The position numbers were made by a program, and so were the translations under genes. The notes beneath the pieces were generated by a model. That model did no database searches, was not told the DNA's origin, and saw only the letters and a list, made by a program, of their open reading frames with translations. Below, one piece after another: positions 11,853 to 64,000 of a stretch of 64,000 nt of DNA (positions are counted from its first letter, which is position 1; every line of letters starts with the position of its first letter). The stretch is from Candidatus Omnitrophota bacterium (GTDB lineage: Bacteria > Omnitrophota > Gorgyraeia > JABMRG01), in NCBI GenBank assembly GCA_043823785.1, contig JBDRAM010000042.1:1563-65562 (forward strand), read 5' to 3'.

Positions 11853-11895
11853 AAAAGATTATTACTAGCTGCTAAAATGACAGGTCAAGTGAGAC

Positions 11896-13362: not shown

Positions 13363-13377
13363 CGAGGTACATCGAAC

Positions 13378-16420: not shown

Positions 16421-16506
16421 AGTAAACATTTTTTATGGTATAGGAAAGTATAAAATACTTTCCTAACCACTAAAAATCGATTAAAAGTTATCGTGGAGCG
16501 ATTTTC

Positions 16507-17570: not shown

Positions 17571-17609
17571 ATAAAATTAGACGCTTGATTTCCTAAGCGA
17601 TGGAGCCTT

Positions 17610-18720: not shown

Positions 18721-18880
18721 TTGATAGTTTATAGTATGGTGCAGCGCACAAGAACTGGGTTAGCAGCGCTGCTAGTAAAAATCCAAAGTAAAAAATAGTT
18801 TATAGTTTATAGTTGAGAGTTTATAGATAGGCGAACAGAGACGTTTTTAAAAATCCAACGAAATAGAAGAATAGATTAGA

Positions 18881-20059: not shown

Positions 20060-20062
20060 AAT

Positions 20063-42909: not shown

Positions 42910-43536
42910 TTGGCCCAGGCAAAAGGAAAAAGACACAGGGAGATATTAAGATATGAGCTTAAGAAGTATTTAGAGAGAAGATCCTCACAAAAGATCTTCA
43001 CATTTCGTCTTACCGCCAGAGGCAAGAGTTTCCACATAAATTATCGAGTTTCAGAAAGAGCTATTCAGGAGGCGGCCATACTGAATGGGCTATATGTTAT
43101 AATGAGCAGCGTAAAGGGTGTAAATGCTGAAACCTTAATCTCTGCTTATCAGAGCAGAATGGAAATAGAGAGAAGTTTTTATCAATTAAAAAGCTTTGTT
43201 GAAATTAGACCTATATACCACCATAATGAGGAACGCATAAGAGCCCATGTAAGCGTTTGTGTATTGGCATATCTGCTAAACAATACGGTTACACATCTAG
43301 TGAGGCAGAAAAAAGATTTTGATGATCTAACAGCGCAGTCGGTATATGGGTATCTCAGGAGTTGTAAGTTAGTCGAATTGAATGCGGGTGGTGAAAAACG
43401 ACTAAAGATCACATCGCCTACGAAAGAACAGATTCGACTTACAGAAATTCTATCGGATAAAGATCTTCTGAATGAGGAGAAGGTTCAAAAAGTTCTAAAG
43501 CAGCTATTAGTGCTAAAAAACACCCTTCATGAATAA
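42910..43536 (+). pseudogene. Truncated IS1634/IS4-family transposase, C-terminal about 208 aa only
   Basis: YQSRMEIERSFYQLKSFVEIRPIYHHNEERIRAHVSVCVLAYLL is the DDE-E region characteristic of IS1634/IS4 transposases. There is no N-terminal half, and a GC-rich remnant sits upstream next to the tRNA. Confidence 0.65.
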
Positions 43537-43664
43537 ATCCCCTGACGAGTGTCTCTACACATAATCAAAAAAGTGGCGAGAAAGGCTTGACATGTAATAA
43601 GGAATATGATAAATTAAATACTGGTAAGTATTGTTCAACAGAAATCAAAACCTTCCAAAACATT

Positions 43665-44150
43665 ATGAGACTATCTATTATCAAGACCTTTAAAAAGCGC
43701 TCTAATAACGGTTTTACTCTTATCGAAATACTGCTGGCAATAGGAATTGCAGCTTTTACCATTTGCGCTATACTCGCAACTTATATTTCGTGCTTCGCCC
43801 TTATTGAGACCGCTAAAAATATAAATATCGCGACAAACGCCGCATCCGGCCTAATGGAGGATATCCGCGCGACTCCTTTTAATGGAGTGAATAGTTTTAA
43901 CGGGGTTAATTTTATTGTAAATAATATACCTGCAAGCCGCGGCGTAGTAAGCATCGCGGATGTAACTCCAGCCGGCTGGCCGTCTGCGACTTTTCTTGAG
44001 GCAACAATAAGCGTCTGCTGGAACCAGCGCAACAGAATTATGGGTGAGGACGCGAATTTAAACGGAGCGCTTGATGCCGGCGAGGATGCCAACGGCAATG
44101 GGACAATAGATTCTCCCGTACAATTAACGACACGAATCGCGCAGAGATAA
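43665..44150 (+). CDS. Minor pilin / pseudopilin (prepilin N-terminal cleavage-methylation domain)
   Basis: MRLSIIKTFKKRSNNGFTLIEILLAIGIAAF. Start set at the internal ATG 43665; the track ORF begins at 43587. Confidence 0.7.
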   Translation: MRLSIIKTFKKRSNNGFTLIEILLAIGIAAFTICAILATYISCFALIETAKNINIATNAASGLMEDIRATPFNGVNSFNGVNFIVNNIPASRGVVSIADVTPAGWPSATFLEATISVCWNQRNRIMGEDANLNGALDAGEDANGNGTIDSPVQLTTRIAQR

Positions 44151-44153
44151 GAT

Positions 44154-44693
44154 ATGAGGGGTTTCACGCTTCTAGAAATACTTATTACGGTAGCCATATT
44201 TACCATCTTGGTGCTTGGGGTATTCCAGCTGATGGAAGCCGGAAACAGGTTTTGGCTTGAAGGCGGGGCATCGGCTGAATTGCGTCAGGATATAATAAGG
44301 GCGCTTATGAGAATGGAGTCTGAACTCAAAGAAACACGGTCCATATCGCCTGCGCCACAAATTAACTTAGCAATCGGCGCCAGCAGTCCTGCTCTTACTT
44401 TTAACATACCTCAAGTCGATTCCGCGACCGGCACAATCTTAAACCCCATAGGCGCTGTAAACTGGTCAGCCCCTATTACGTATGCGCTTAATGCCAACAA
44501 TCAGATAACAAGAACAGATATCGGCACCGGAACCGTAACTATAATTGCAAACCACGTTAGCGGCCTGGTGTTTGCAAGGCTCGCAACCGATCCGTCTAAT
44601 ATCTTACGGATTAATATTACCGTAGGGAAAACCACTCTTACAAGAAGGCAGTTGCAGGATACGCAGCAGATTAGAATAAAAATGAGGAATTAA
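44154..44693 (+). CDS. Minor pilin / pseudopilin
   Basis: MRGFTLLEILITVAIFTILVLGVF is a class III signal. 179 aa. Confidence 0.75.
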   Translation: MRGFTLLEILITVAIFTILVLGVFQLMEAGNRFWLEGGASAELRQDIIRALMRMESELKETRSISPAPQINLAIGASSPALTFNIPQVDSATGTILNPIGAVNWSAPITYALNANNQITRTDIGTGTVTIIANHVSGLVFARLATDPSNILRINITVGKTTLTRRQLQDTQQIRIKMRN

Positions 44694-44716
44694 TTAAAGA
44701 GGGGAAAGGACTTAAG

Positions 44717-46039
44717 ATGTTTATAGGACTTAGAAACAAAAAGGGCTCAGCGCTTATAACCGTTTTTTTAGTCATAACTGTTTTGCTTGTCCTTTCCGCC
44801 GCATTCGTCAGCGTAGCCATCAGCCATAGTCGCGCCACTGAGAGATTTAAAAACCGAACCGTAGCATTTCAGACTGCTGAAGCAGGGCTTGACCATGCTT
44901 TCGCCTGGCTGCAATACCGGCCTGTTCCGCCTGCCGGTATCCTGGTCAATCCTTGGGAAGCCGCAGGTGCCCCTACTCTTATCGGAGGAGGCAATTACAC
45001 AGTTATTATTACCAAGCTCGTTTCCCCAACCGGCGATTCGTCTATTATCAGATACAGCTTGACTTCTTCCGGTTCATTTGCGGGCGCAACTCGAGTTTTG
45101 ACAAGCTATGTGCAGACATCCAGCTTTGCGCGCTACATCTGGTTTACCAATGGGGAAACGTATAACGGCACAGCGGTGTGGTTTTGGTCGCTGGATTACC
45201 TGGATGGCCTAGTGCATACCAACGGACATTTTAATATCTACAAAAATCCCGTCTTTGCAGGCGCGGTAAGTTCAGCTGATGACTACATAAGATATTACAA
45301 TAATGGGAATAATATAAATTTATCACAAACCTCTAATCCGCCGCATGACCTGCCTAATTTTCAGCAAGGTATCAATCTTGGAGCATATCCTATCGTTATG
45401 CCTAATAAGGCGACTAAGTTACGGAATGCCGCTGCCTGCGGAGGACTTACATTAACAGGAAATACAACAGTTGTACTCAAAGACGATGGCACTATGGATG
45501 TTACTAATGCAGATAATAATTGGAATAATACAAATAGGCCTTTGCCTGACAACGGCGCGCTCTTTGTAACCGGCGGCAACTTGACTATCGAAGGAACGCT
45601 TAGCGGCCAATTAACTGCCGGCGCCGAGAACGATATAATTATCAGTGACAATATAGTTTATGCTGATGATCCCCGGGCTAACGCGGCTTCAACCGATGTT
45701 ATGGGTATTGTTTCAGAAGGCGATGTCGTGATAGATGACAGCGCTTCAGGCCCAGGCGGCAATCTTGAGATAAATGCCTGCGTTATGGCATTAAATGATT
45801 CTTTTATGTTGGAGAGCTATTGGATAGGGCCTGCGCAGGGAACGCTGACTGTTTACGGAGGCATTATTCAGGAAGAGAGAGGTCCCATTGGCACTTTTAA
45901 TGCCAAGGCTAATACTCAGATCAGCGGTTACGCTAAAAACTATACGTATGATTTAAGATTGCTTGGTTTTCCGCCGCCTTTTATGCCCACTACGGGCGAT
46001 TATGATATATTAGCATGGGAGGATAATAATAAACTATGA
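44717..46039 (+). CDS. PilX-N-domain minor pilin-like protein, 440 aa (candidate tip/adhesin subunit)
   Basis: GSALITVFLVITVLLVLSAAFVSVAISHSRATE plus FQTAEAGLDHAFAWL, a PilX N-terminal-type motif. C-terminal region is N/G/T-rich and beta-helix-like. Confidence 0.6.
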   Translation: MFIGLRNKKGSALITVFLVITVLLVLSAAFVSVAISHSRATERFKNRTVAFQTAEAGLDHAFAWLQYRPVPPAGILVNPWEAAGAPTLIGGGNYTVIITKLVSPTGDSSIIRYSLTSSGSFAGATRVLTSYVQTSSFARYIWFTNGETYNGTAVWFWSLDYLDGLVHTNGHFNIYKNPVFAGAVSSADDYIRYYNNGNNINLSQTSNPPHDLPNFQQGINLGAYPIVMPNKATKLRNAAACGGLTLTGNTTVVLKDDGTMDVTNADNNWNNTNRPLPDNGALFVTGGNLTIEGTLSGQLTAGAENDIIISDNIVYADDPRANAASTDVMGIVSEGDVVIDDSASGPGGNLEINACVMALNDSFMLESYWIGPAQGTLTVYGGIIQEERGPIGTFNAKANTQISGYAKNYTYDLRLLGFPPPFMPTTGDYDILAWEDNNKL

Positions 46040-46748: not shown

Positions 46749-48161
46749 ATGGCTCCAATCATTATCTATATAGTAACCATAGTTACCAGTGCTGCCATAG
46801 CCGGATTTTTAATACGCATGACCACTATGTCGTATTACGCGAAGTTGAAAGAAGATGAGAGGAAAAAAAACGATTTCTTTGCCAGGGATGATGTTACAGA
46901 TCATGAGCTAAAGGAATATGTAAATAGCGAGATACAAAATATAGTGGGATCTGAAAAGCGTTCTCGTGAGATAAGCAAAGTGGTCTCGGATATTATGTCT
47001 AAAGAGGTCAATAAGAAGGTAGAGCAGGCCAGCCAGCAGATAGGAGAAAGATACAATAAGGTCATCGAGCAGAAAATCCAGAACGAAGAGATAGCCTGGA
47101 AAAAATATAAGAAAGTACTCTCCAATAAGAAAGAGACAGAGGCTGTTATCAGAAGCGTTGCCGAAGGTTTAGTTGTGGCAGATTCAAAGGGGAGGGTTAT
47201 TATGATGAATCCTGCCGCGGAGAAGCTTCTTGGCGTATCAAAAAAAGACAAGATAGGTAAGCACATATTAGATAATCTTCAAAAAGGAGAATTGGTAACC
47301 CTGGCTAAGGGCACACCGGAGAAGGATAACATGACGATAGAAGCCAGGAGCCAGGAGGATGAGACCAGAAAGATATTAAGGTCAAGCAGCGCGGTTATAG
47401 AGGATGAGAACGGCCAGACCGTGGGTATGGTCAGTGTATTGAGTGATATTACGAAACAGAGAGAGCTGGATCAGATGAAGTCAAGGTTTGTATCCGGCGT
47501 TACCCACGAATTGCGCACACCCTTAGTATCCGCGCAAAAATCCATATCATTGATACTCAGCAGGGCGGCAGGTAAAGTCTCGGAAGCCCAGCAGCAGTTT
47601 CTTTCCAACGCGGAACGCAATTTGAATAAGTTAAGCGGCCTCATAGATGACTTATTGGACATGTCCAAGCTTGAGGCAGGAAAGCTTGAGATCAAACTTG
47701 AACCGCAGACTGTCGAGAAGATCATTAATGAATCTACAGAGGGGCTGAATGCGTGGGCAGTATCAAAATCTATAGATATTATAGAGGATATACAGGAAGG
47801 CCTTCCCAATGTTAATGTAGATATGCACAGAATAAATCACGTTCTCAATAACCTGATAGGCAATGCTCTAAAGTTTACACCAAGCAAAGGTAAGATTACT
47901 GTAAAAGCAGCCTTGGATAAAGAAGGCAGTGTTGAGATAAGCGTATCGGATACCGGCATTGGTATACCTGAAGCTGCTCTTCCTAAAGTGTTCGACAGAT
48001 TTTACCAGGCAGGTGAGAGGGTCGCGACAGATGTAAGCGGTACAGGCATAGGTTTGTCAGTTGCAAAAGAGGTTGTAGAGCTGCATGGAGGAAAGATATG
48101 GGTTGAGAGCCAGAAGGGCGAAGGGGCTACATTCAACTTTACCCTGTCCCCAGCAGCTTAG
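46749..48161 (+). CDS. Sensor histidine kinase (N-terminal TM, coiled coil, PAS, HisKA, HATPase_c)
   Basis: H-box SGVTHELRTPL. N-box LNNLIGNALKFT. G-boxes DTGIGI and GTGIGLSVAK. Confidence 0.8.
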   Translation: MAPIIIYIVTIVTSAAIAGFLIRMTTMSYYAKLKEDERKKNDFFARDDVTDHELKEYVNSEIQNIVGSEKRSREISKVVSDIMSKEVNKKVEQASQQIGERYNKVIEQKIQNEEIAWKKYKKVLSNKKETEAVIRSVAEGLVVADSKGRVIMMNPAAEKLLGVSKKDKIGKHILDNLQKGELVTLAKGTPEKDNMTIEARSQEDETRKILRSSSAVIEDENGQTVGMVSVLSDITKQRELDQMKSRFVSGVTHELRTPLVSAQKSISLILSRAAGKVSEAQQQFLSNAERNLNKLSGLIDDLLDMSKLEAGKLEIKLEPQTVEKIINESTEGLNAWAVSKSIDIIEDIQEGLPNVNVDMHRINHVLNNLIGNALKFTPSKGKITVKAALDKEGSVEISVSDTGIGIPEAALPKVFDRFYQAGERVATDVSGTGIGLSVAKEVVELHGGKIWVESQKGEGATFNFTLSPAA

Positions 48162-48218: not shown

Positions 48219-48617
48219 ATGAGTAAAAGCAAAGGAGTAAAGATTCTTCTTGTTGATGACGAGCCTGATTTTACACAGCCTATAGAATTTTGGCTTAAAT
48301 CAAAAGGTTATACTGTATTGATAGCGCGGGAAGGAAAAAGCGCTTTAGAGATCATCAAAGCGGACTCCCCGGATATGGTTTTCCTTGACCTTAAGATGCC
48401 TGTCATGGATGGGATAGAGACACTGCGAAATATAAGAAAATTCAATACTGACCTGCCTGTTATTATTATAACGGTTGAATACGCAAACGATAAAAAATTT
48501 GAAGAGGCAAATAAATTGGGAAGTTCAGGGTTCTTCCCGAAAAAAGGAAGCTTTGAAGAGCTGGAAAGCATAATAGGAGTTACTTTAAGAACTCATAAGA
48601 CCTTAAAAGATAAATAA
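48219..48617 (+). CDS. Response regulator, receiver domain only
   Basis: KILLVDDEPDF...VFLDLKMPVMDG. 132 aa. Confidence 0.8.
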   Translation: MSKSKGVKILLVDDEPDFTQPIEFWLKSKGYTVLIAREGKSALEIIKADSPDMVFLDLKMPVMDGIETLRNIRKFNTDLPVIIITVEYANDKKFEEANKLGSSGFFPKKGSFEELESIIGVTLRTHKTLKDK

Positions 48618-48688: not shown

Positions 48689-51600
48689 GTGCCCATAATG
48701 CGACCAACAATTAAGGTAAGGTTATGCATGGTTGCAGTTTTCACTATAACGGCTTTTTTACTTGCGGTACTTAGCTCTATCTCTACGGTGAGCGCACAAA
48801 CACCAAGAGAAGGCTCTGTTATCTACGCAAGCAATAAAGCAGGTTTTATTTTTATAAATTTGGGAAAAAACAATATTAATATCGGAGACCTGGTAGAGGT
48901 CTATAGAGACTCTTTACATGTTGGGACTTTTTCTGTCAAATCCGTAATGAAGAATATGTCAGAAGCCTGGGCCATAGATGAGAATAAGGATGTGCTGGTG
49001 AAGATAGGCGATAAGGCTATAATACCGGGCAGAAGCCAAGACGCTATTATGGGTTCCGGCCAGGAAGATTACGAATCGACACAGGAGGAGGAAGAGGCTG
49101 AATTCGAAGAGGAGCATATAGAATCAGCGCCCAAAGAATCTACGCTAACCTATACTAAGGCAGAGGCGGCGCTTTCTTCCAGCTATGCAGCAGATGCTAT
49201 GCAGAAGGATTACGATAATTTACAATATGAGGTCGATGCGTTAAAAGAAAAAATAACTTATTTACAAGGTGAGAACCAGGATATTAAAGGTACAGGCGCT
49301 ATATTAAAAGAAGAGATAGCACTTTTAAAGAAAGAGAAGTCTTCCCTTTCTTCACAGCTTGTTTCCGCCAAGCAGGCCTCGGAAAAGGCAGATGTTCGGA
49401 AAAGCACAGAAGCAACTTTAAGGCAAGAGCTCGACCGCCTCAGTAGTGAAAATAGCTCTATTAAAAAGGAAAAAGAAAGCTTAGAAGAAGAGATAGCCTT
49501 TTTAGAAGATGAGAAGTCTTCACTTGCTTCGAAGCTTGCTTCCGCGGAAGAGTCCAGCGAAGGCCTTGAGGATTTTAAAGATACAGAAGAGAGCCTGAAG
49601 GAAGAGGTGGAATATTTAAAAGATGAAAATGAAGACTTAAAAGATGTAGAAGGGTCACTGAGAGAAGAGATAGAATATCTTAATAAGGAAAAAACCTCTC
49701 TCACATCAGAGCTAACCCTGCTTAAAAAATCTTCTAAAGGCCAGGAGCAGTTAAAGGGCGCGGAAGAGAGCTTGAAGAAAGAGATAGAATATTTAAAAGA
49801 TGAAAATGAAGATCTTAAAGACGCTGAATCTGGTTTTAAGGATGAGATAAGAGATCTGAAAACTAAAAATCAGGAGTTAGAAGATGCGGAGGCTTTGTTG
49901 AGGCAAAAGCTTGCTTCCGGACTTGAAAGCGGAGCAGAGGATGATCTAAAGAACGAGATAGCTTCCCTTGAAGATGAGGCAGCGTCATTAGAGAATGAGA
50001 AGTCATCCCTCCTATCCAAGGTAGATAGTTTAGAAGATTCAAAAGACGAAGTAGAATCTAAGCTTAAGGATGAGATAGCCTCGTTAAAGGAGGCAGAGTC
50101 TGAATTAAAGAATAGAATAAATTTATTGACAGGCACTAAGAGTGAATCGGAAAAAGCCTTAAACACAAAGATAGCCTCTCTGGAAGACGAGCTAGTATCG
50201 TTAGGAGATGAGAAATCATCTCTTCTTTCCAAAATAGATAACTTAGAAGATTCAAAAGACGAAGTAGAATCTAAGCTAAGAGATGAAGCCAATACGTTAA
50301 AAGAAGAGGCAGCCTTATTGAAAAAGGCAGAGTCTGAATTAAAGAATAGAATAAATTCATTGACAGGCACCAATGCCCAGGCGGAAAAAGAGTTAAACGC
50401 AAAGATAGCTTCCCTTGAAAATGTGGCAGCGTCATTAGGGAATGAGAAGTCATCCCTCCTATCCAAGGTAGATAGCTTAGAAGATTCAAAAGACAAAGTA
50501 GAATCTAAGCTTAAGGATGAGATATATGTATTGAAAGAAGCAGAGACTGCCCTAAGGAAAGAGATAGCTTCTTTGACTGAGGATAAAGGCAGCACAGAAT
50601 CTCAGCTGCGTGCCAAGATAGCATCGCTGGAAGATTATATTTATGATTCGAATAAGAAGAATAACTCCTTAAGCGCGAAAATAGCATCGTTAGAGGAATC
50701 CGCGAAGACGATAGAGTCTAGGCTTAATGATGAGATTACTTCATTGGCAGGTTCCGAGATAGACCTAAAGTCTAAGATAAGTTCATTAACCAAAAGCAGA
50801 GATGATATAGAATCTGTTCTGACGGGCAAGGTAAAAACACTTGAAGAAGAGAGCCTCCTTCTAAAGCAGGAAAAGGCATCCCTGAATACGCGTATGCTTT
50901 CTTTAAAAGATTCAGGCGCAGAAGTAGAATCCAAGCTAAAGGATGAGATATCTTCTCTGAATGATGATAAGGGAAAGCTGCAGGATGATTTAACATCAAA
51001 GATAACTTTATTTGAAGAAGAGGCCTCTGCCTTAGATAAAGAGAGATCTTCTTTGAAGTCAAAAGTAGCTTTATTGGAAGAAGCGAAAAGTAAAACAGAG
51101 TCAATGCTGAAGGAAGATATAGTATCTCTGACCAAGATAAGTAACCAGACAGAAAAAGAATTGAGCGAGAAAATATTAACTTTAGAGGGCAAGCTGTCTT
51201 CTTTGGCTAAAGAAAACTTGTCACTTTCCTTAAAAGTTTCGTTACTTGAAAAATCAAAAAAAGACGCGGAAGAAAAATTAAAATCCGAAACAACAGCATC
51301 AAAAGAAACAGAAGCGGAATTAAGAAATAATTTAAGCCTTACAGCCAAGGCCAAGGCAAAGGCAGAAGAAAGCCTGAGCAAGGCCATAAATTCGCTGGAA
51401 AAGGAGATCTTGGCCTTAAAAAATGAGAATATATCTCTTGCAAAGCAGATGGCTTCTATGGGTGACGCTAAAAAGGAGACAGAGTATGAGTTGGGAGAGA
51501 AGATAAAGTCTCTTGCAATGTCCAATGTTGATATAAAATCCGATCTTATGAAGAATATAGAGTCTCTTGAAAAGGAGAAATACTCATTAATTACACAGCT

Positions 51601-55411: not shown

Positions 55412-55650
55412 CGATATATTGATGTAGATTTTGTGCTCTATTAATCATCTCAATGAAGTTTTCAAGAATCAAGCCTATATAATTATGAACTTCCTTTAAG
55501 AATCCCGCCAAAAATTTTTTACAAATCAGCCCAAATTTCCTTGACAGGGTTTATATCTATGATATATATTGAAATTATGATAGATATGATAGTTACAATA
55601 GATTAAGCATTATGAGGAATAAAAAGCCGGCTAATGCGAGGAGAGTAAAT

Positions 55651-55887
55651 ATGCAAAAGGGAGAAAACAACATGATGTCTGCGAATGATATCGCGAAGAA
55701 GCATAATATCAGCTATCAGGCAGTCAACCATTATACTAATTTTGGCCTTTTGCCCGTATCTATAAAAAAAGGCAACATAAGGTTTTATGATAAGGCCATA
55801 GTTGATAAGCGCATGAGGAAGGTTAAAGAGCTTATGGAAGAGGGCTACTCTCTGGGCCTGATAAGAAGAAGATTGATAGGGATATGA
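55651..55887 (+). CDS. Small MerR/excisionase-type HTH DNA-binding protein (paralogue of 21954-22157)
   Basis: MSANDIAKKHNISYQAVNHYTNFGLLP. Start set at ATG 55651 after GAGGAGAG. Sits directly upstream of the ExeA-like/secretin operon. Confidence 0.55.
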   Translation: MQKGENNMMSANDIAKKHNISYQAVNHYTNFGLLPVSIKKGNIRFYDKAIVDKRMRKVKELMEEGYSLGLIRRRLIGI

Positions 55888-55941
55888 TGACAACAAGCTG
55901 CAAGCCGCAAGCAGCGAGTTAAAGGTTATAAAGGTAGATAT

Positions 55942-56820
55942 ATGAGTTATTATAAGATATTAGGTTTTGAAAAAGAACCATTTTCAACAAGCCCTGATCC
56001 TGAATTTTTTTACCTGTCTAAAGAACATGAGACAGCATTGACTAATATCTTGATTGAGCTCAGGCTAAAGAGAGGCCTTACCGTTATCCTGGGAGATGTA
56101 GGAACAGGCAAGACCACGCTTTCCAGAAAGCTTATACAGGAGATGAAGAGAAGAGAGGATTTTATATTTCATATAATATTGGATCCTTCTTTTGAGAGCG
56201 AAAACCTGCTTTTAAGCTCATTGGCTAAGAATTTTGCTATAGCGTTAGGAAATACGGCAGACAATCCTGTCCCGAACATACTTGATCTAAGAGACTCATT
56301 GAAAGGTTTTCTTTTCCAGAAAGGCGTAACAGAGAACAAGGCGGTAGTCCTTATTATCGATGAAGCGCAGAAGCTGAATGAGAATTCACTCGAGATATTA
56401 AGGGTCCTTCTGAATTATGAGACCAATGAGTTTAAACTTCTGCAGTTGGTCCTTTTGGGGCAGCTTGAATTACACGCGAAGATAATGAATATGCATAATT
56501 TTTTTGACAGGATAAGCTTTAAATACAGCTTGAACCCATTTGACCTGGAAGAGACCAAAGAGATGATAGAATTCCGCATAAGGCAGGCAGGCTATAGTTC
56601 GCACATGCACCTGTTTTTGAATGACGCGGTAAGGGAGATACATAATTATAGCCACGGTTATCCCAGAAAGATAACCATGCTATGCCATAGGGCTCTTAAG
56701 GAGCTTGTTATGAAGAATAGGGCTGTAGTAGACGGGGCTTCTATTCGCAAGATGATAGATGAGGAGATAAGATCGGGATGGCACAAGAGAGACCTGATAC
56801 TCCAGAAAAGCAGTTATTAA
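55942..56820 (+). CDS. ExeA/GspA/MshM-like AAA+ ATPase (secretin-assembly type, no peptidoglycan-binding domain)
   Basis: Walker A LGDVGTGKTTLSRKL. Walker B VLIIDEAQ. 292 aa. Confidence 0.7.
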   Translation: MSYYKILGFEKEPFSTSPDPEFFYLSKEHETALTNILIELRLKRGLTVILGDVGTGKTTLSRKLIQEMKRREDFIFHIILDPSFESENLLLSSLAKNFAIALGNTADNPVPNILDLRDSLKGFLFQKGVTENKAVVLIIDEAQKLNENSLEILRVLLNYETNEFKLLQLVLLGQLELHAKIMNMHNFFDRISFKYSLNPFDLEETKEMIEFRIRQAGYSSHMHLFLNDAVREIHNYSHGYPRKITMLCHRALKELVMKNRAVVDGASIRKMIDEEIRSGWHKRDLILQKSSY

Positions 56821-57467
56821 AATTAATAGAAGATCCTAAGTCTAAAACAGCTTCGAAGGCTCAGGCTGTAAAAAGGAAAGGTATAAGCCTGTTTTCTCCG
56901 GGCGCATGGCTCGGGAGGACATCTTTTTTAAAGAAAGGGCTTGGCAGCTGGCTTAAGAGTGAAGGCCTAAAGCTATTAAATGTAAAGGTATTAAATAGGA
57001 CATTAGGCCTGTGCAATTTTATGCTGATAGCCTATCTTGCTGTCAACTTTTCAAACTCTATGATAGAGTTTAAGAATAAGCCTGACCTTGGGTTGAGTGC
57101 CAAGATCGCTAAAAAATCTCCAGAAATAATAGAAGTGGCCTCGCTTCTTAAGGATGAGCCATATTATTTGAATAAAATAGGTGAAAGAAATATATTCGAG
57201 ATGGGCAAGATAGAAAGTGATGATATAATAGGTGAGCCGCAGGTGCAGCTTACTCCTACAGCATCACCTGCTATAGAAGCAACGCAGCACCTGAAACTAG
57301 TCGGCATATCGTGGTCTAATGAACCTGATGCTATGGTTGAAGATACAAGGGCGCTTAGGACATTTTTTGTAAAAAAGGGCCAACTGGTTGGTGAGGTTAG
57401 GGTTAAAGATATTCTTAGGGACAGGATTATACTGACATACCAGGGCGATGAGGTGGAATTGAGATGA
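56778..57467 (+). CDS. Bitopic membrane protein (GspB/ExeB- or MshJ-like candidate)
   Basis: Single TM (LCNFMLIAYLAVNF) after a basic N-terminus. Overlaps the ATPase stop and precedes the secretin. Assigned by position. Confidence 0.4.
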   Translation: MAQERPDTPEKQLLKLIEDPKSKTASKAQAVKRKGISLFSPGAWLGRTSFLKKGLGSWLKSEGLKLLNVKVLNRTLGLCNFMLIAYLAVNFSNSMIEFKNKPDLGLSAKIAKKSPEIIEVASLLKDEPYYLNKIGERNIFEMGKIESDDIIGEPQVQLTPTASPAIEATQHLKLVGISWSNEPDAMVEDTRALRTFFVKKGQLVGEVRVKDILRDRIILTYQGDEVELR

Positions 57468-59284
57468 GAAATAGCCACATCTGTATATCAAGGGTTTTTA
57501 AATTAATAGTTTCAGTAGTTTTTTTACTGGATTTTTCATGCATAGAGCATACGATAGCTGCTGAATCAGAGCTTACGCAATTGGCCCAGGCAGCTGTAAA
57601 CGCGCCCATGGAACAGACAGATATAGCGCCTATCATAAGCGGCATGGGGGGAAAGATCTCACTGGACCTTCGCAATATAGATGTAATGGACGCGCTTAAA
57701 TTCCTGGCTATGAAGACAAGGATGAATATCGTTGCTACAAAGAATGTTACAGGAAGGGTCACGCTTTCGGTAGACAATGTAATGGTAAGAGATATATTCG
57801 ATATAATGCTTCGATCAAACGAGCTGGCCTACGTGGAGCAGGGAAACATCTATAATGTTATGACAGAGGATGAATACAGGACACTTTTTGGCAGGAGTTT
57901 TTCGGATATGCGCAAGGTAAGGACATTCAAGCTTCAATACGTTATACCTGAACAGGGGTTTAGCCTTTTAGATACCTTAAAAAGCACCATAGGCAGAGTG
58001 CTTGTTGAGCCGGATTCGGGCACTGTATTGATCATGGATACGCCTGAGAAGATAGAGGAGATCGAAAAGGCCTTAGAAGAGTTCGAAACGAGAAATGAGG
58101 TAAAGGTCTTTGACTTACAATACGCGTTAGCAAAAGACGTGGAAGAACAGCTTAAGCCGCAGCTAAACGCGAAAAAGGTAGGTACCATAAAAGCGGATGA
58201 ACGTACAAATCAGATTATTGTACAGGCGCTGCCAGGCAGAATGAAGGAGATAGAGGAGTTGGTAATAGCCCTGGATCAGAAGACGCAGCAGGTCATAATA
58301 GATGCTAAGATAATAAAGATAAAGTTTACCGATGCAACAAAAAAAGGGCTTGAGTGGGAAGGTATTTTAAAAAGAGGCGAGCGCATAGGTTCAGCATATT
58401 TGGGCTCTTATCCATTCAGCGCTATCCAGGCAGCTACAGATGTATTCAGGACCAGAAGCCAGGTTTTAGATGATCTGGGTGGTGAGATAGGCTCTATTCC
58501 TTTTAGCGGCTACAGTACTAATTATGGAGGCACAACAAAGACTACTTTTGGTGAGGATATGCACCTGGGCCTCATACATCCTGAGGCAGATGTCGACCTT
58601 CTCATAAATTATCTTAATACAATAGGCAAGACGCAGATCCTTTCAAGCCCAAGGATATCCGCTATTAATAATCAGGAGGCAAAGATACATGTGGGTGAGC
58701 GCCAGGCTTATGTTACTACAACTACTACCAGCGGCCAGACGACGACAACCGTTTCAGAAGAGGTGACATTTATAGATGTGGGTATTCAGTTATCCGTTAC
58801 GCCGGTTATAAATGAAGAAGGCTATGTAAGGATGAAGATAAAGCCTGAGATATCAGCTGTGGTAGATACCTTGGTTACGCCATCGGGTAATAGAATTCCT
58901 ATAATAGATACTTCTACGGCGGAAACGACTGTTTTAGTAAAAGATGGAACCACTATCATAATAGGAGGATTGCAGAAGGAAGAGTCGACAGACAATAAGA
59001 AACAATTCCCTATTTTAGGCAATATACCGATATTAGGTTTTTTCTTCGGTACTGATACCAAGACAACGATAAGGACAGAGCTTATGATAATGCTCACCCC
59101 TACAATAGTAATCGGCGATAAGCTGACAACCGGAGATGAGAGAGACTTCAAGTATGAGCCCGCGAGAGGCTACGATGAGTATGAGAATTTCAGCGAGGAC
59201 AAAGATATGATAAAGCCCACGCAGGAGCCCGAGGAGAGGATAAAGCCTTATATGCCGTATGAGATGGAAAAGGGCGCGTCTTGA
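57464..59284 (+). CDS. Secretin (GspD/MshL-like), second secretin in the window
   Basis: Signal peptide, two secretin-N repeats, and secretin core TTIIIGGLQKEE...FPILGNIPILGFFFG...ELMIMLTPTIV. Confidence 0.8.
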   Translation: MRNSHICISRVFKLIVSVVFLLDFSCIEHTIAAESELTQLAQAAVNAPMEQTDIAPIISGMGGKISLDLRNIDVMDALKFLAMKTRMNIVATKNVTGRVTLSVDNVMVRDIFDIMLRSNELAYVEQGNIYNVMTEDEYRTLFGRSFSDMRKVRTFKLQYVIPEQGFSLLDTLKSTIGRVLVEPDSGTVLIMDTPEKIEEIEKALEEFETRNEVKVFDLQYALAKDVEEQLKPQLNAKKVGTIKADERTNQIIVQALPGRMKEIEELVIALDQKTQQVIIDAKIIKIKFTDATKKGLEWEGILKRGERIGSAYLGSYPFSAIQAATDVFRTRSQVLDDLGGEIGSIPFSGYSTNYGGTTKTTFGEDMHLGLIHPEADVDLLINYLNTIGKTQILSSPRISAINNQEAKIHVGERQAYVTTTTTSGQTTTTVSEEVTFIDVGIQLSVTPVINEEGYVRMKIKPEISAVVDTLVTPSGNRIPIIDTSTAETTVLVKDGTTIIIGGLQKEESTDNKKQFPILGNIPILGFFFGTDTKTTIRTELMIMLTPTIVIGDKLTTGDERDFKYEPARGYDEYENFSEDKDMIKPTQEPEERIKPYMPYEMEKGAS

Positions 59285-59414
59285 TTTTTGAAAGGATTTA
59301 AGATCCTTCGGTCCCCTGCGGGGACCTCAGGATAAATTCGCACTTATAAGTTATGTCGTTCTTCGACAAGCTTAGGACTCCATAACTTATGTGCTCATTT
59401 AGAAAGGGAAAAAA

Positions 59415-60506
59415 ATGAATAAATTTAAGATGATGGCGATATGTGTAGGTATTCTAGTTTTTGTAGAAGGCGCGGGGGTCCTCTATTTTGCTCACAGGGC
59501 TCAGGCGCTTTCCGAGGAGCTGGAGAATGTCGCTCCTGGATTGAAAGAGGAGTTAAACATTCTCAAAAAAGAGAAACAAAAGCTGGAAGAAGAGCGCAGC
59601 AGCCTCGCGGATGAGAACGAAAGAATAAAGAAGGATAGAGAGAATCTACTGGCGCAGACGAAGTTTCTCTTAAATCATAAAGCAAAGGCTGAGGAGCTTG
59701 ATAATGCCATGAAGGCCCTTGAGGCTAAGAAGCAGGAGATAGAGACGGGATTGACATCAAGGAATAAGGAGCTCGAGGATACCTTAAGAAGCGAAAGAGA
59801 GAAATTTGGCACAGAACACAGCGCGTTAAAACAGCAGAACAGCAAGCTGCAGGGTGTTGTAAAACAGCTTATGTATATACAGAAAGAGGTTGAAAGCGAA
59901 AGGGACTATCTTCAGGAAGCCTATGATAAGCTGAAAGATAAATCTACCATAACGGAATTTAAGAAAACAATATCCAATATTACCAAGGATAACAAGGACC
60001 TGGATAATAAGTTTAAGCTCGCGGAAAGAGACACTGAGAAACTAAAAGATCTAAAGAATAAAGCTGACGCGAGGATAGAAAGCTTAGAAACAAGCCTAGA
60101 TGAATATAAGAAGAATTATGATGATGCTAAGAAGAAAAACAATGCTCTTGAGAAAGAGGTAAAGAATATGCCTAAGAAGTTTCAAGAGCTATCCAGGCAG
60201 AACAGAACCCTTATAAAAGAGACAGCCAAGACACATTATAATCTTGGCGTTTTTTACACAAAAGAGAAAGAATATGATAGGGGCGCTTCTGAGTTCGCGA
60301 AGGCTGTTGAGATAAATCCGGATGACGCGTATTCTCACTTCAACCTGGGTTATTTATATGCTGAGCATATGGTAAACCGCAAAAAGGCGCTAGAGCATTT
60401 CAGGCATTTTTTAAGGCTTGCTAAGGGCAATGATAAGGATATAGACTGGGTAAGAAAATATGTACTTACCTGGGATACATACGAAGGCCATAGCGCGTTT
60501 AAGTAA
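59415..60506 (+). CDS. Membrane-anchored coiled-coil protein with C-terminal TPR repeats (MshN/PilF-like candidate)
   Basis: N-terminal TM, about 230 aa of coiled coil, then TPR (YNLGVFYTKEKEYDRGASEFAKAVEINPDDAYSHFNLGYLY). Confidence 0.5.
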   Translation: MNKFKMMAICVGILVFVEGAGVLYFAHRAQALSEELENVAPGLKEELNILKKEKQKLEEERSSLADENERIKKDRENLLAQTKFLLNHKAKAEELDNAMKALEAKKQEIETGLTSRNKELEDTLRSEREKFGTEHSALKQQNSKLQGVVKQLMYIQKEVESERDYLQEAYDKLKDKSTITEFKKTISNITKDNKDLDNKFKLAERDTEKLKDLKNKADARIESLETSLDEYKKNYDDAKKKNNALEKEVKNMPKKFQELSRQNRTLIKETAKTHYNLGVFYTKEKEYDRGASEFAKAVEINPDDAYSHFNLGYLYAEHMVNRKKALEHFRHFLRLAKGNDKDIDWVRKYVLTWDTYEGHSAFK

Positions 60507-60540
60507 GGTCTAGGCTGTAGGTTCTAGGTTGTAGGGTATA
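60507..60540. repeat. Family B half-copy
   Basis: ggtctaggctgtaggttctaggttgtagggtat resembles one arm of family B. Confidence 0.45.
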
Positions 60541-61055
60541 TGGCAAAAATTCTTCATATTATACTAATTCCAATCACAATATTATTTTTAACCATATCAT
60601 GCGGTGTTGCGCATGCCAAAGGCGTAGATTTTGTTATATCATCCGATAAGGCGGAATATAGCAAGGCAGATGCTATAAATATAACATTCAAAATAGTAAA
60701 CAAAAGCAAAGAAGAGATATATATCAATCAGCGCTTCTATATAAATTCTGCGGATACAGAAGAAGGAGAAAGGGAGGTCTACTTTAGGGTTACTTCTCCT
60801 TCAGGTGAAGAATTATCCTGTAAACATAAGAGTGACACAGGTTTTCCAAGGACAGATGATTTTGTATTATTAAAAACAGGTAATGAAATACAAGGGGACA
60901 GGCCTAAAAATATAAAAGGCCTTTTTGATTTTGATAGTACCGGAACTTATGAGATACAAGCAACGTACAAAAATATATATGGTAAAGAAATAGGGCTTGA
61001 TGTTTTTAAAGAAAAGATCGATTCTAAACCAATAAAAATAAAGATAGCGGAATGA
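60540..61055 (+). CDS. Secreted protein, unknown
   Basis: Signal peptide ILFLTISCGVAHA/KG. 171 aa. Confidence 0.45.
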   Translation: MAKILHIILIPITILFLTISCGVAHAKGVDFVISSDKAEYSKADAINITFKIVNKSKEEIYINQRFYINSADTEEGEREVYFRVTSPSGEELSCKHKSDTGFPRTDDFVLLKTGNEIQGDRPKNIKGLFDFDSTGTYEIQATYKNIYGKEIGLDVFKEKIDSKPIKIKIAE

Positions 61056-61077
61056 GTTATATGATATACATATACTA

Positions 61078-61173
61078 TCATTGCGAGGAGATTCGTAGTT
61101 CTGTCATTGCGAGCCGCCGAAGGCGGCGCGGCAATCTCTCTTTTTGGGATTGCTTCGCTTCGCTCGCAATGAC
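61078..61173. repeat. Family D element: direct TCATTGCGAG copies plus inverted copy and nested palindrome
   Basis: tcattgcgag at 61078-61087 and 61104-61113. Nested palindrome ccgccgaaggcgg. Inverted arm gctcgcaatgac at 61162-61173, which contains the PPIase start ATG. Confidence 0.7.
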
Positions 61174-62617
61174 GGTAGCGTTAATGTGCCTCTTAATTTT
61201 TTCGGGCCATGGCTTTTGCGAAGAGCAACCCTCGCAAAATGTAATAATGGGTGAGGCATTCGGTAAACCTGTTACTGTTGAGAATTTCAATTATTATTAT
61301 AAGACAGCCGCTGTTTTTACGCGCAGCGGTAAGGAGTCAAGAGACGAGGAAGATGTAAGGCAGGAGGCGTGGCAGAATCTGGTATTCAGGCATGAGGCCA
61401 GGGAACTGGATATTACCATAGAGCCCGAGAAACTAAAAGAGGACATAAAGCGCCTTATGGATGAGAAGGGTGTAGCGCATGGCAGCCAGGAGTACCGCGA
61501 TTGGGTTGAAAATGAGTTTGGCGAGGATGTTAAAACTTTCGAAAGACGCATCGAAGATCTATTGATAATAAACAAGTTTATTGATATAAAATTTAACCCT
61601 GAGATAATAATTTCAGAGGAAGAGGTAAAGCAGAAGTTCCTGAACCAGTACAACTCCTTTGAAAGTGAATATATAGGTTTTGAGAGCGAAGAAGATGCCA
61701 AGGAGTTCCATAAAAAGCTAAAGACTAACCCTAAGCTATGGAAAGATACATATGATGAGAAAAGAAAGCTGGGCCAAAAAGGGGCCGCATGGATAAACAT
61801 AATGACATTAGAGGCATTAATAGATCTCTGGAAGATACCTAAAGATGACGCTTACCGCATATTAAGCCGCAAGGAAGGGGATTTCATTGCGGCAAAGTAT
61901 TATTATGGCGACGCGGTATTTCGCCTCTTGCGCAGAAGAGAAGCGGATATGAGTATGTATACAGATAATAAAAAGGAATATCTAAGGAGCATGATATTAA
62001 GGCAAAGAAAGCAAAAGGCTGTAAGAGATTATTTCGAAGGCCTGCTTAAGAGGGCAAACCATAGGGATTATATACATGAACAGAAACTTGCTATTAAAGT
62101 AGAAGAGCTAAAACTTAAATCTTTACTTGCATTAGAGACAAATAGAGGTATAATAGTACTAAGGCTTTTTCCTGATATAGCGCCTAAGGCCTGTGAGAAC
62201 TTTATCGGCCTGGCGGAAAAAGGCTACTATGACGGTATAATATTTCACCGCGTGGTAAAAGATTTTGTTATACAGACAGGAGACCCCACAGGAACAGGCA
62301 CAGGCGGTGAATCGATCTGGGGTGAGCCTTTCAAGAATGAGATAAGTGAGGATGTTTCTTTTGACAAGCCAGGCATTCTAGGCATGGCAAATTCAGGCCC
62401 GGATACCAATAGCAGTCAGTTCTTTATAACTACCAAAGAAGCCCCGAGCCTGAATAAAAAATATACCATATTCGGCGAAGTAATAGAGGGCCTTGATGTT
62501 GTTAAGAAAATAGAAAGTACGCCTGTTGATGAGAAAGATAATCCTAGAAAAGAGCAGAAAATAGTAAAAGCATATATAAAAGGTATGCCCCATAAAGAGA
62601 AAGAAAAGGGCATCTGA
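61169..62617 (+). CDS. Peptidyl-prolyl cis-trans isomerase: SurA-like N-terminal chaperone region plus cyclophilin-type C-terminal domain
   Basis: Cyclophilin motifs FHRVVKDFVIQTGDPTGTGTGGESIWG and MANSGPDTNSSQFFITT. Start set at ATG 61169 (MTVALMCLLIFSGHGFC signal peptide); the track ORF begins inside a repeat element. Confidence 0.75.
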   Translation: MTVALMCLLIFSGHGFCEEQPSQNVIMGEAFGKPVTVENFNYYYKTAAVFTRSGKESRDEEDVRQEAWQNLVFRHEARELDITIEPEKLKEDIKRLMDEKGVAHGSQEYRDWVENEFGEDVKTFERRIEDLLIINKFIDIKFNPEIIISEEEVKQKFLNQYNSFESEYIGFESEEDAKEFHKKLKTNPKLWKDTYDEKRKLGQKGAAWINIMTLEALIDLWKIPKDDAYRILSRKEGDFIAAKYYYGDAVFRLLRRREADMSMYTDNKKEYLRSMILRQRKQKAVRDYFEGLLKRANHRDYIHEQKLAIKVEELKLKSLLALETNRGIIVLRLFPDIAPKACENFIGLAEKGYYDGIIFHRVVKDFVIQTGDPTGTGTGGESIWGEPFKNEISEDVSFDKPGILGMANSGPDTNSSQFFITTKEAPSLNKKYTIFGEVIEGLDVVKKIESTPVDEKDNPRKEQKIVKAYIKGMPHKEKEKGI

Positions 62618-62736: not shown

Positions 62737-63579
62737 ATGGATAAAGGCGCATTTTATAAGATCTCAAGGTTGAGCATATTTTTGATAATGGTATCTTTAA
62801 TATTATCTTATCCTGTTCCAAGCCAAACGGCATGGGGCAAGGGTGAGGCAGAGGCAAAGGCCGCGAAAGAAGCCAAAGAGGCCGAAGAAGCGAAAAAAGC
62901 CAAGATGGCAGCCATTGAAAAAAAGAGGCAGATGATAAAGGTTGTAAAAGAGAAGCTAAACAATACTGCCTGGAATATAGAGATCAAAAAACTGGGCAGC
63001 GCTGGTAAAGACAAGAAGCCAGAGATCATTAATGATAGATTGAATTTTGTAAACAACCAGGTAGGGTCTGCTATGCTGGGGCGTGATGGTTTTTCCAATA
63101 CAAACTTCTCCGTAAGAATAAATGAGAGCAGAGGCCCTACAGGTAAAGATCTTATTATCTGGGAGACTATGCAGACAAGTGAAGAGAAGGGGCTTTCATT
63201 TTGGAGAGGTGAGTTTGAAGAAGGTGATACCACAATGCGCGGCGCGTTAAGCCGGCACTATGATAAAGAAAATATTGAGAATTATACGTTTTCCGGCGTA
63301 AAAGGAGATATTGCAGAAGCCCCTGCTCCTGAAGCAGAAGAAGCGGTTGTGGTTGAACCAGCTAAAGAGGATGTAGGAGCCCGCCTGCCCCTAGAAGCTA
63401 GTGGCGGACAGGCTGCCTCCGGCGGCGAATTAGAAGAGAAAGTAGTTGAGAAGGCCGAAGAAATAATAAAGAAAACCGAAGAAAAGGCGGAAGAAAAGAT
63501 TAAAAAAGCAGAGCCTGAAGAAAAGAAAGAATCCGCAGCCCCAGCCAAGAAAGAGAAGAAAAAAAGAGGGCTTTGGTAA
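62737..63579 (+). CDS. Secreted lysine/glutamate-rich low-complexity protein
   Basis: Signal peptide, KEAKEAEEAKKAK repeats, C-terminal EEKAEEKIKKAEPEEKKE. Confidence 0.5.
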   Translation: MDKGAFYKISRLSIFLIMVSLILSYPVPSQTAWGKGEAEAKAAKEAKEAEEAKKAKMAAIEKKRQMIKVVKEKLNNTAWNIEIKKLGSAGKDKKPEIINDRLNFVNNQVGSAMLGRDGFSNTNFSVRINESRGPTGKDLIIWETMQTSEEKGLSFWRGEFEEGDTTMRGALSRHYDKENIENYTFSGVKGDIAEAPAPEAEEAVVVEPAKEDVGARLPLEASGGQAASGGELEEKVVEKAEEIIKKTEEKAEEKIKKAEPEEKKESAAPAKKEKKKRGLW

Positions 63580-63643: not shown

Positions 63644-63667
63644 CCAGGCAACTCGCCTGGTTTTTTT
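63644..63667 (+). terminator. Rho-independent terminator
   Basis: ccaggc-aact-cgcctgg stem followed by a T7 run. Confidence 0.6.
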
Positions 63668-63748: not shown

Positions 63749-64000
63749 ATGGCACGGTTACCAAGGGTTTATGTCGAGGGTATTCTTTATTATGTTACTT
63801 CAAAAAGCGGACACAACGAAGACCTATTTTTAGACTCCGCTGATTACAAAGAATACATCTCTCTTATAGACAGATATAAGAGGCAGTATGGATTTAAACT
63901 TTACGCGTATACGCTCCTGCCAAAACACCTACACATGCTTATTGAATTAAAAAATAATATAGGCATCTCAAATATAATGCATGATATAAATTCACTGTAC
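63749..64000 (+). CDS. IS200/IS605-family Y1 HUH transposase or RAYT-like, 3'-truncated by the window end
   Basis: MARLPRVYVEGILYYVTSKSGHNEDLF...YAYTLLPKHLHMLIE. This is the HuH motif (HLHML) of Y1 transposases/RAYTs. There is no stop before nt 64000, so it is absent from the ORF track. Confidence 0.65.
   Translation, partial: MARLPRVYVEGILYYVTSKSGHNEDLFLDSADYKEYISLIDRYKRQYGFKLYAYTLLPKHLHMLIELKNNIGISNIMHDINSLY

Follow-up and report, generated by a model that had tools for sequence, protein, structure and literature searches.

GspB, which consists of a single transmembrane (TM) segment and an HR domain, binds the N0 domain of a secretin and anchors the pore to the inner membrane, and it usually partners the AAA+ ATPase GspA (Zhang et al. 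2022, PMC9239104). The GspA of Alteromonas and Pseudoalteromonas, which has no periplasmic region, is a described archetype, and HR-domain proteins normally link the secretin to the inner-membrane platform (PMC9239104). Here we analyze a locus of five genes, encoding a MerR-type helix-turn-helix protein, an AAA+ ATPase, a bitopic adaptor (BIT), a secretin, and a coiled-coil/tetratricopeptide repeat (TPR) protein (TPRcc), in a stretch of 64,000 nucleotides (nt) from a Candidatus Omnitrophota bacterium (assembly GCA_043823785.1, contig JBDRAM010000042.1, positions 1,563 to 65,562), referred to below as the window. Omnitrophota, an uncultured phylum, are ultra-small bacteria (cells of ~0.2 µm), probably predatory or parasitic, that are noted for enormous surface proteins. 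The locus represents a type of secretin operon that occurs across this phylum, carries its own assembly factors, and has no pilus motor nearby.

The ATPase served as the conservation probe and was searched against one genome per species, which yielded 80 loci, almost all titled Omnitrophota. ATPase identity to the window copy was 57-78% across these 80 species, and a database search with the window secretin returned a 100% identical protein of a Candidatus Omnitrophota metagenome-assembled genome and hundreds of orthologues at 56-80% identity. Twenty-two window proteins were mapped onto the 80 relatives' loci, with the neighborhood taken as ±10 kb of the module, and all open reading frames (ORFs) of the related loci (n = 84 mapped; given L numbers below) were clustered into an extended operon map. 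Pfam labels were given for L001-L004, L085, and L087, and the other loci were compared with the window proteins alone. The order ATPase-BIT-secretin-TPRcc was invariant in L001-L004 and in every locus of the 80-species set long enough to show it; three long contigs shared the order ATPase, 229-amino-acid (aa) protein, secretin, ~350-aa protein. Among the relatives, a 43-nt overlap joins the ATPase and BIT genes in 48 of 65 pairs, and an ATGA overlap joins the BIT and secretin genes in 53 of 72, which argues for translational coupling and a stoichiometric complex. No homologues of PilB, PilC, PilM, or PilO and none of GspE/F/L/M were found within 10 kb of the module in the 80 loci. Pilin genes were rejected as conserved neighbors, since an N-terminal pilin motif was seen in L059 alone among the related loci. 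The first-pass annotation had described a secretin module without a GspE/PilB-type ATPase, platform, or pilins of its own, and this description holds both in the window and in the neighborhoods of the 80 relatives. The invariant order and the lack of motor genes across 80 species indicate that the absence of a motor beside the secretin is a phylum-wide design.

The ATPase and BIT were compared with GspA and GspB. The 292-aa ATPase carries a Walker A motif (GDVGTGKTT) at residues 51-59 (56092-56118) and a Walker B motif (LIIDEAQ) at residues 137-143 (56350-56370) in a match to AAA_22. It has no hydrophobic segment (maximum hydropathy, 1.08) and no match to PF01471, the peptidoglycan-binding domain whose absence had been noted when it was first called a GspA/MshM-type ATPase. 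It shares with GspA/ExeA a cytoplasmic AAA+ domain with both Walker motifs, encoded by a gene that overlaps that of an HR protein. The TM segment and periplasmic PF01471 domain of typical Vibrio and Aeromonas GspA are missing, and the Alteromonas-type archetype fits. BIT has one hydrophobic TM segment at about aa 71-91, preceded by a conserved cytoplasmic N-terminal motif (PEKQLLxLIE), and its C-terminal part, starting near aa 168, is an HR domain. This is the single-TM, periplasmic-HR architecture of GspB, GspC, and PilP. As a single sequence it gave a weak Pfam T2SSC match (19.4 bits against a cutoff of 27; E 1e-3). A 43-sequence BIT profile matched the GspC HR domain in PDB 3oss_C, the GspC-GspD N0-N1 complex, with an E value of 5.6e-5, and hhalign related BIT to the T2SSB-family protein of the window's type IVa pilus (T4aP) locus (24322-24804) with 82% probability. 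These matches bear out the initial label of a GspB-like bitopic protein and strongly support the prediction that its HR domain is of the type that docks on secretin N0. Together with the T2SSB-family protein, they suggest that each of the two window secretins has its own HR-domain partner. As a pair, the ATPase and BIT fit the archetype of a cytoplasmic-only GspA with a GspB made of a TM segment and an HR domain.

The 606-aa secretin clearly belongs to the superfamily, with a PF00263 score of 159.3 bits against a gathering score of 27.5. It has a signal peptide, a weak STN/N0 match, two Secretin_N matches (73.1 bits), and a disordered acidic/aromatic tail. Its AlphaFold2 model, at a predicted local distance difference test (pLDDT) score of 65.6, comprises N0, two beta-alpha-beta-beta-alpha ring domains, the barrel, and the disordered tail. 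Foldseek placed PulD, ExeD, and GspD on top (E 1e-25), followed by InvG and PilQ, while sequence matches in the PDB gave near-equal scores to PilQ and GspD structures. All three class models scored below their cutoffs: the GspD equivalog TIGR02517 at 250.1 against 351.35 bits, PilQ TIGR02515 at 243.2 against 284.35 bits, and MshL at 183.8 against 250.2. The modeled fold leans slightly toward type II secretion system (T2SS) secretins, with those of type III secretion systems (T3SS) and type IV pili close behind, a lean that is not decisive. With its coupled AAA+ gene, single-TM HR protein, N0-bearing secretin, and ATPase free of a periplasmic or peptidoglycan-binding region, the module resembles the GspA/GspB (ExeA/ExeB) and GspD set of the Alteromonas type (PMC9239104). 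It differs from T2SSs that use GspA/GspB in having no GspC-M, GspE, GspF, or pseudopilin operon nearby in 80 species; in a secretin that has N0 and two ring domains instead of N0-N1-N2-N3 and scores under the equivalog cutoffs; in the addition of a coiled-coil/TPR protein, a SurA-like peptidyl-prolyl isomerase (PPIase), and the protein p280; and in its occurrence in Omnitrophota, not Proteobacteria.

In the window copy of TPRcc, a hydrophobic segment at the N-terminus is followed by a coiled coil of about 240 aa and, at the C-terminus, a TPR domain. The TPR domain is highly conserved, with a mean column identity of 60%, and the coiled coil is the part that varies: between lineages, the whole protein measures anything from 306 to 1628 aa. 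The protein had been annotated as a TPR coiled-coil protein of pilotin or MshN-like type. The TPR and coiled-coil parts are both present, but the pilotin models scored far under their cutoffs (PilW, 29 bits against 154; Tgl, 19.5 bits against 225). No canonical lipobox was found in TPRcc, and its TPR profile drew generic TPR matches from the PDB with no pilotin-specific signal.

The module also resembles the MshK-MshL-MshM-MshN block of mannose-sensitive hemagglutinin (MSHA) pilus loci, which combines a secretin, a soluble AAA+ ATPase, a TPR protein, and a PilP-like HR protein (Denise et al. 2019, PMC6668835). Unlike MSHA loci, it lacks the mandatory MshA, MshE, and MshG, its gene order corresponds to M-K-L-N, and its TPR protein has a long coiled coil. 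Of the components in the MSHA system model (PMC6668835), the locus contains an L-like and an M-like gene only, with no ATPase motor, platform, or pilin. The resemblance to the MshL-MshM-MshN block nevertheless speaks for a different explanation, which we regard as possible but rather unlikely: that the module is the outer-membrane half of a T4aP, T2SS-like, or Tad machine whose motor acts in trans, for example PilB/PilC at 26.5-29.5 kb together with the pilin-like genes at 43.6-46.0 kb. Every secretin known to us relies on a motor of this kind, and the window holds one PilB/PilC set plus extra pilin-like genes. It is typical of T4aP genes to be scattered among several loci, MSH loci use a borrowed prepilin peptidase (PMC6668835), and HR-domain proteins normally bridge the secretin to a platform (PMC9239104). 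However, PilB and PilC already come with a secretin and an HR protein of their own, in a compact locus ordered PilM-PilO-HR-secretin-PilB-PilC-pilin. Across the 80 species, the 10 kb on either side of the module contain no motor, platform, or pilin genes other than the L059 pilins. The pilin-like genes reported upstream of the module are indeed present (43587-46039), as is the giant coiled-coil ORF beyond them, but these pilin-like genes have no counterpart near the module in relatives and directly follow a DDE_Tnp_1 transposase fragment.

The T4aP locus itself had been described as a complete set with its own secretin. A series of genes from PilM-like to pilin, including a secretin, is present, but "complete" was an overstatement, as no PilT-type gene was found: tblastn detected PilB, PilC, and the other locus proteins in one copy each and no second PilB/PilT-type ATPase in the window. 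No PilD was seen in the window ORFs scanned, a scan that included no search aimed at PilD. The secretin of this locus is 27% identical to the module secretin, and a metagenome scan with it gave one match, at 28% identity. The PilM-like protein is 524 aa long, its PilM match is confined to the first ~200 residues, and no separate PilN gene was seen; together these features suggest a possible PilM-PilN-type fusion. Positions 34096-36331 and 42910-43536, which lie between the T4aP locus and the pilin-like genes, hold a DruA-like gene, an IS66-family transposase, and the DDE_Tnp_1 fragment.

All five plus-strand ORFs of the module are present, and domain matches support the class originally assigned to each (Table 1). 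The operon does not end with TPRcc at 60506, where its boundary had been drawn, but runs on to 63579 through genes for p171, a SurA_N-cyclophilin protein, and p280. The typical extended order in relatives is [HK RR] MerR AAA BIT SEC TPRcc p280a p171 SurA_N-PPIase p280b, Y1_Tnp-like, c10, c12, where HK is a histidine kinase, RR a stand-alone receiver, AAA the ATPase, and SEC the secretin, and all proteins encoded past the secretin bear N-terminal hydrophobic signal segments. In the 36 loci that were well covered (at least 3 kb of upstream and at least 9 kb of downstream sequence), AAA, BIT, and SEC occurred in all 36, TPRcc in 34, p280 in 28, the SurA-like gene in 25, MerR in 20, HK in 17, c10 in 16, and c12 in 13. 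The p171 profile gave weak arrestin/CS-like matches and nothing significant against the PDB. In some lineages the SurA-like gene encodes 315-374 aa, with a weak Rotamase_2 match in place of the cyclophilin domain. No Pfam match was found for p280 and no PDB match for the profile of its domain; relatives have two to three p280 paralogues per operon. The window breaks off within the next gene, a Y1_Tnp-TM-p280-domain fusion whose orthologues are 420-477 aa long (Y1_Tnp E 3e-14; for example, L007:17872-19158 and L085:10452-11738). L085, whose secretin is 70% identical to the window's, was the closest relative used for sequence past the window end. There, p280 is followed by Y1_Tnp, c10, a gene for 282 aa, and c12 (at least 1003 aa, incomplete at the contig end). 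This order suggests that the Y1_Tnp, c10, and c12 continuation probably lies just outside the window.

Table 1. Features of the window in order of position
Feature	Position	Strand	Basis or location
PilM-like	22188-23762		T4aP locus
PilO/GspM-like	23765-24304		T4aP locus
T2SSB/HR protein	24322-24804		T4aP locus
Secretin, 499 aa	24898-26397		T4aP locus
PilB	26494-28197		T4aP locus
PilC	28233-29456		T4aP locus
Pilin	29727-30104		T4aP locus
PAS histidine kinase (HK)	46749..48161	+	Pfam HisKA/HATPase_c/PAS
Stand-alone CheY-like receiver (RR)	48219..48617	+	Pfam Response_reg, E 1.2e-26
Giant Sec-dependent coiled-coil protein, 2248 aa	48665..55411	+	Sequence, composition, heptad periodicity
Sigma-70-like promoter candidate TTGACA-18-TATATT	55541..55570	+	11/12 consensus matches, best site in 46.4-64 kb
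MerR-type helix-turn-helix	55612..55887	+	Pfam MerR_1, E 9.9e-10
Soluble GspA/ExeA/MshM-like AAA+ ATPase (AAA)	55942..56820	+	AAA_22, E 3.5e-19
Bitopic GspB/GspC-type adaptor (BIT)	56778..57467	+	Profile match to GspC HR domain, E 5.6e-5
Secretin (SEC), 606 aa	57464..59284	+	Pfam PF00263, 159 bits, E 8.4e-47
Coiled-coil/TPR protein (TPRcc), MshN/TadD/PilW-like accessory	59415..60506	+	TPR families
p171, small exported protein, probably beta-sandwich	60540..61055	+	N-terminal hydrophobic segment; family in 19 species
SurA_N-like + cyclophilin PPIase, periplasmic chaperone-like	61052..62617	+	Pro_isomerase E 4.5e-53; SurA_N_2 E 2e-4
p280, exported protein with conserved ~110-aa domain	62737..63579	+	Family in 28/36 loci
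Intrinsic-terminator-like hairpin CCAGGC-AACTC-GCCTGG then T7	63644..63667	+	Direct sequence reading; absent from pattern-scan list
5' part of Y1_Tnp (IS200-like)-TM-p280-domain gene	63749..64000, runs off window	+	Translation

Long Sec-dependent proteins recur beside the module: 30 of the 36 well-covered loci have one or more of them (c12, a coiled-coil family, or a long TPRcc). Complete copies of c12 are 2770-2850 aa long; they have a signal peptide, the start of the mature protein is conserved, and Ig-like repeats match Kre9_KNH (E 1.5e-37; examples begin at L001:14771, L004:15036, and L085:13066). It is preceded by the small exported protein c10, and c10-c12 lie downstream of the module in 13-16 of the 36 loci, L085 among them. 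The c10 profile found nothing significant in the PDB. Elsewhere the long partners are coiled-coil families: c13 lies between AAA and BIT, c31 occurs in other lineages, and c23, which follows TPRcc, reaches 2070 aa and has an N-terminal beta domain of the kind seen in the giant protein of the window. Immediately behind the signal peptide, mature c12 reads A-[AV]-Q-[IV]-K-[RK]-V-Q-x-G, which could be a sorting or recognition signal. In one genome, L087, an inserted nucleotidyltransferase/HEPN toxin-antitoxin-like pair (9256-9997) separates c10 from c12.

The best explanation of the module, and one in which our confidence is about even, is that it is a GspA/GspB-type assembly and anchoring module that builds a stand-alone secretin gate for the linked long Sec-exported proteins. 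By analogy with GspA/GspB (ExeA/ExeB), the ATPase and BIT would form an inner-membrane complex, and the literature on those proteins suggests that this complex would drive secretin assembly and tether the secretin to the inner membrane. TPRcc could act as a pilotin-like or strut-like accessory that braces the pore, as PilW, Tgl, TadD, and MshN suggest. Synteny and signal peptides point to the finished pore as a putative outer-membrane exit or display site for the long Sec-exported neighbors, the ~2,800-aa c12 or the coiled-coil families.

Several points weigh against this explanation. To our knowledge, the characterized secretins all have a type IV filament motor, a T3SS, or a phage assembly ATPase as partner; we know of no precedent for the export of Sec substrates through such a pore in the absence of a pseudopilus; and the GspA/GspB of the systems known to us act in secretin assembly alone, not in transport. 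The linkage to long proteins is frequent but not obligatory, as the c12 block of L087 has no secretin module within 10 kb upstream, and in the window the terminator-like hairpin separates p280 from the next gene. The enrichment of ORFs of at least 1000 aa is modest (13 in ~808 kb, against 2 in ~350 kb of upstream flanks). For the giant protein, considered below, the FlgT_C match of the window copy itself is under threshold, and the AlphaFold2 model of its N-terminal beta domain failed, with a pLDDT of 53 from a 6-sequence alignment. A second GspE/GspF or Tad set elsewhere in the genome could be the partner, and Tad systems, like T4aP, are common in Omnitrophota (PMC10066038). A bolder version, which we consider clearly unlikely, is a pseudopilus-independent pathway in which the AAA+ protein, through its HR adaptor, would both assemble and gate or energize the secretin. 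Very long Sec-exported proteins (the Ig-repeat c12 and coiled-coil fibers) would reach the surface in this way, and the giant FlgT_C-ended proteins would serve as periplasmic tethers or rulers that link secretin complexes around the cell.

The giant protein begins with a signal peptide and a FlgT_C-like beta domain at aa 45-125, continues through about 2000 aa of coiled coil, and ends with a second such domain at about aa 2166-2248. Orthologues with both end domains were found in 4 close relatives only (L018, 776 aa; L026, 710 aa; L010/L085, at least 494 aa; L047, at least 705 aa), in the equivalent place, with RR on one side and MerR or AAA on the other. From the lengths of 710-776 aa, the window copy appears to be a roughly threefold-expanded member of a lineage-specific gene, and on this comparison we read the gene as a lineage-specific insertion, enlarged by repeats, that separates RR from MerR. 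A tandem duplication of 234 nt (78 aa) at 50091-50520 (1.8 copies, 82% identity) is a visible trace of expansion. FlgT_C was matched by 8 of 12 end-domain copies, the best with an E value of 7.7e-4, which is under the gathering score. Searched against 1.8 billion representatives, the end-domain profile found 462 relatives; in a sample of ten (E 1e-18 to 1e-10), nine matched FlgT_C and seven reached the gathering score, at 27.3-47.8 bits. Another homologue search gave 4 matches each for the end-domain profile and for c12. A match of the end domain to TsaP of the Myxococcus type IV pilus machine (3jc8_Ta) was weak (E 0.042).

Both FlgT and TsaP are located in the periplasm, where they form rings that surround outer-membrane complexes, and TsaP is part of 3jc8 and 6ve2. 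With such domains at both ends, the giant protein may, with low confidence, be read as a periplasmic strut or tether and not as cargo; its two ends might, by this analogy, bind ring structures such as the secretin. With the giant protein included, the locus recalls the T4aP subcomplex of PilP-PilQ, PilW/PilF/Tgl, and TsaP in having an HR protein, a secretin, a TPR accessory, and end domains that are putatively FlgT_C-like. It differs from that subcomplex in having no AMIN domain match (Pfam, module secretin), no PilMNO, and no lipobox in the TPR protein, and from TsaP in that no LysM domain was found in the giant protein and about 2000 aa of coiled coil lie between two beta domains. Two candidate relationships were rejected: c10 does not share the giant protein's beta domain (hhalign probability, 1.6%), and the downstream c12 genes are unrelated to the window's coiled-coil giant. 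The idea that the module is a dedicated conduit for the giant coiled-coil protein is not supported in this form, since the gene occurs in 4 close relatives only, lies upstream of the promoter candidate, and has ends that fit a periplasmic structural protein better than cargo. In the co-occurrence comparison proposed alongside that idea, four relatives share the giant gene, which is lineage specific, and a broader version of the idea, a recurrent link to long Sec-dependent proteins, is supported in 30 of 36 loci.

The genes upstream of the module bear on another possible cargo. Protein-glycosylation-type STT3, PMT, and GT2 genes lie directly upstream of the module in L002 (1-8297), L004 (1-8403), L019, L051, L053, L057, and L063; several B12-binding radical SAM genes accompany them, and similar genes occur in the window at 9270-21733, 35-45 kb upstream. 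Such neighbors in several lineages are compatible with a pore that exports exopolysaccharide, "slime," or a glycoconjugate, as proposed for cyanobacterial and myxobacterial PilQ/GspD nozzles, with an ATPase akin to those of PEP-CTERM/exopolysaccharide loci. Secretins have been implicated in slime secretion (PMC12475490), and among NCBIfam models the ATPase comes closest to TIGR03015, the ATPase associated with XrtA/PEP-CTERM systems (E 1.1e-53). We consider this very unlikely. The TIGR03015 score of 182.5 bits is far under the cutoff of 324.5, the glycosyltransferase neighborhood is absent from many lineages, including that of the window, and STT3 with PMT indicates protein glycosylation over polysaccharide export. 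Comparison of the loci with window proteins, together with the Pfam labels for L001-L004, L085, and L087, revealed no export genes of the Wza/Wzc, ABC, or synthase kinds.

Filamentous phages export their particles through the secretin pIV, which works without a pilus and with pI(-pXI), an inner-membrane P-loop ATPase that contacts the secretin via a periplasmic segment. The module is similar in that a non-GspE P-loop ATPase would serve the secretin and no pilus would be involved. It differs in that its ATPase is of the AAA_22 family, not Zot, and is non-homologous to that of the phages, and in being chromosomal, vertically conserved, and free of phage genes. A module left behind by a filamentous-phage-like or other mobile element, with a pIV-type secretin and an assembly ATPase, is in our estimation extremely improbable. 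The secretin does match PHROG 1012 (M13 protein IV; E 1e-54), for the ATPase there is a match to a MuB-like "DNA transposition protein" PHROG, and a Y1 transposase-like gene follows the operon. However, pIV is matched by any secretin, none of the seven module proteins searched against PHROGs gave a match to a Zot-type ATPase, coat, or replication gene, and the same chromosomal context recurs in 80 species at 57-78% ATPase identity. GC content is unremarkable, and the Y1_Tnp gene is itself syntenic, fused to a TM segment and a periplasmic p280 domain. A prophage or inovirus origin is effectively ruled out by the phylum-wide vertical conservation. The Y1_Tnp gene is syntenic in at least 15 species, and its C-terminal domain is paralogous to the periplasmic p280 proteins. 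By this synteny it looks like a domesticated transposase that acts as a membrane-bound regulator and not like a mobile element.

Genes resembling those of T2SSs and type IV pili beside giant Omnitrophota genes are described by West-Roberts et al. 2023 (bioRxiv 10.1101/2023.11.21.568195) and again in a 2026 preprint (10.64898/2026.06.07.730766). As described there, such a locus carries gspD, gspE, gspF, rcpC, class III signal peptides, and a Rotamase_2 PPIase beside genes for proteins of more than 30,000 aa. Our module shares with it the phylum, a secretin and a PPIase near very large genes, and a proposed role in the export of giant surface proteins. It differs from that Tad/T2SS-like locus with a motor in having no E/F genes within 10 kb, in its GspA-like ATPase, HR adaptor, and TPRcc, and in linked proteins of 0.7-2.9 kaa. 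The weak Rotamase_2 match in the short SurA-like genes hints that the two kinds of locus may partly overlap. In the literature searched, we found no description of a motor-less module of AAA, HR, and TPRcc proteins. The arrangement had initially been called unusual. For the core this was too strong, as the GspA/GspB archetype is described (PMC9239104) and T2SS-like loci near giant genes have been reported in Omnitrophota (bioRxiv 10.1101/2023.11.21.568195). The core is best seen as a GspA/GspB-assisted secretin of the known type in a stand-alone, phylum-wide form.

Upstream, the HK-RR pair is syntenic with the module in relatives. The window HK is 54% identical to that of L001, which directly precedes RR-MerR-AAA, and the giant gene starts 48 nt after HK-RR in the window. 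The MerR gene has a 64% identical orthologue in L001 and was found in 49 of the 84 mapped loci. Its presence agrees with the first-pass annotation, but its start is more likely 55651, which would give a protein of 78 aa as in relatives, with GGAG 8 nt upstream. The sigma-70-like promoter candidate falls in the 200-nt gap between the stop of the giant gene and MerR. This position suggests that the module is driven by its own promoter, a suggestion drawn from a consensus match only. Short direct repeats (ATGATAGATATGATAG...) at 55575-55611, between the promoter candidate and the MerR start, could be an operator.

Some lineages carry a second secretin. Two tandem secretins were present in 11 of the 36 well-covered loci, and the lineages with this layout are L046, L048, L051, L053, L056-L058, L063, L065, L068, L071-L073, and L078. 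The two genes are separated by a coiled-coil/TPR protein of 400-1628 aa, except in L078, where they are directly adjacent. In the layout SEC-TPRcc-[MerR]-SEC-TPRcc, a second small MerR gene often precedes the second secretin.

With its compact, phylum-wide operon, fixed gene order, and unusually conserved AAA+ ATPase, the module is a concrete candidate for the machine that takes the giant surface proteins of Omnitrophota across the outer membrane. If it works independently of a pseudopilus, it would extend the roles ascribed to secretins and to GspA/GspB-type factors. If it borrows the T4aP motor, two pores would share one motor. In both cases, an expanded periplasmic accessory is a better reading of the giant coiled-coil gene than a unique cargo.

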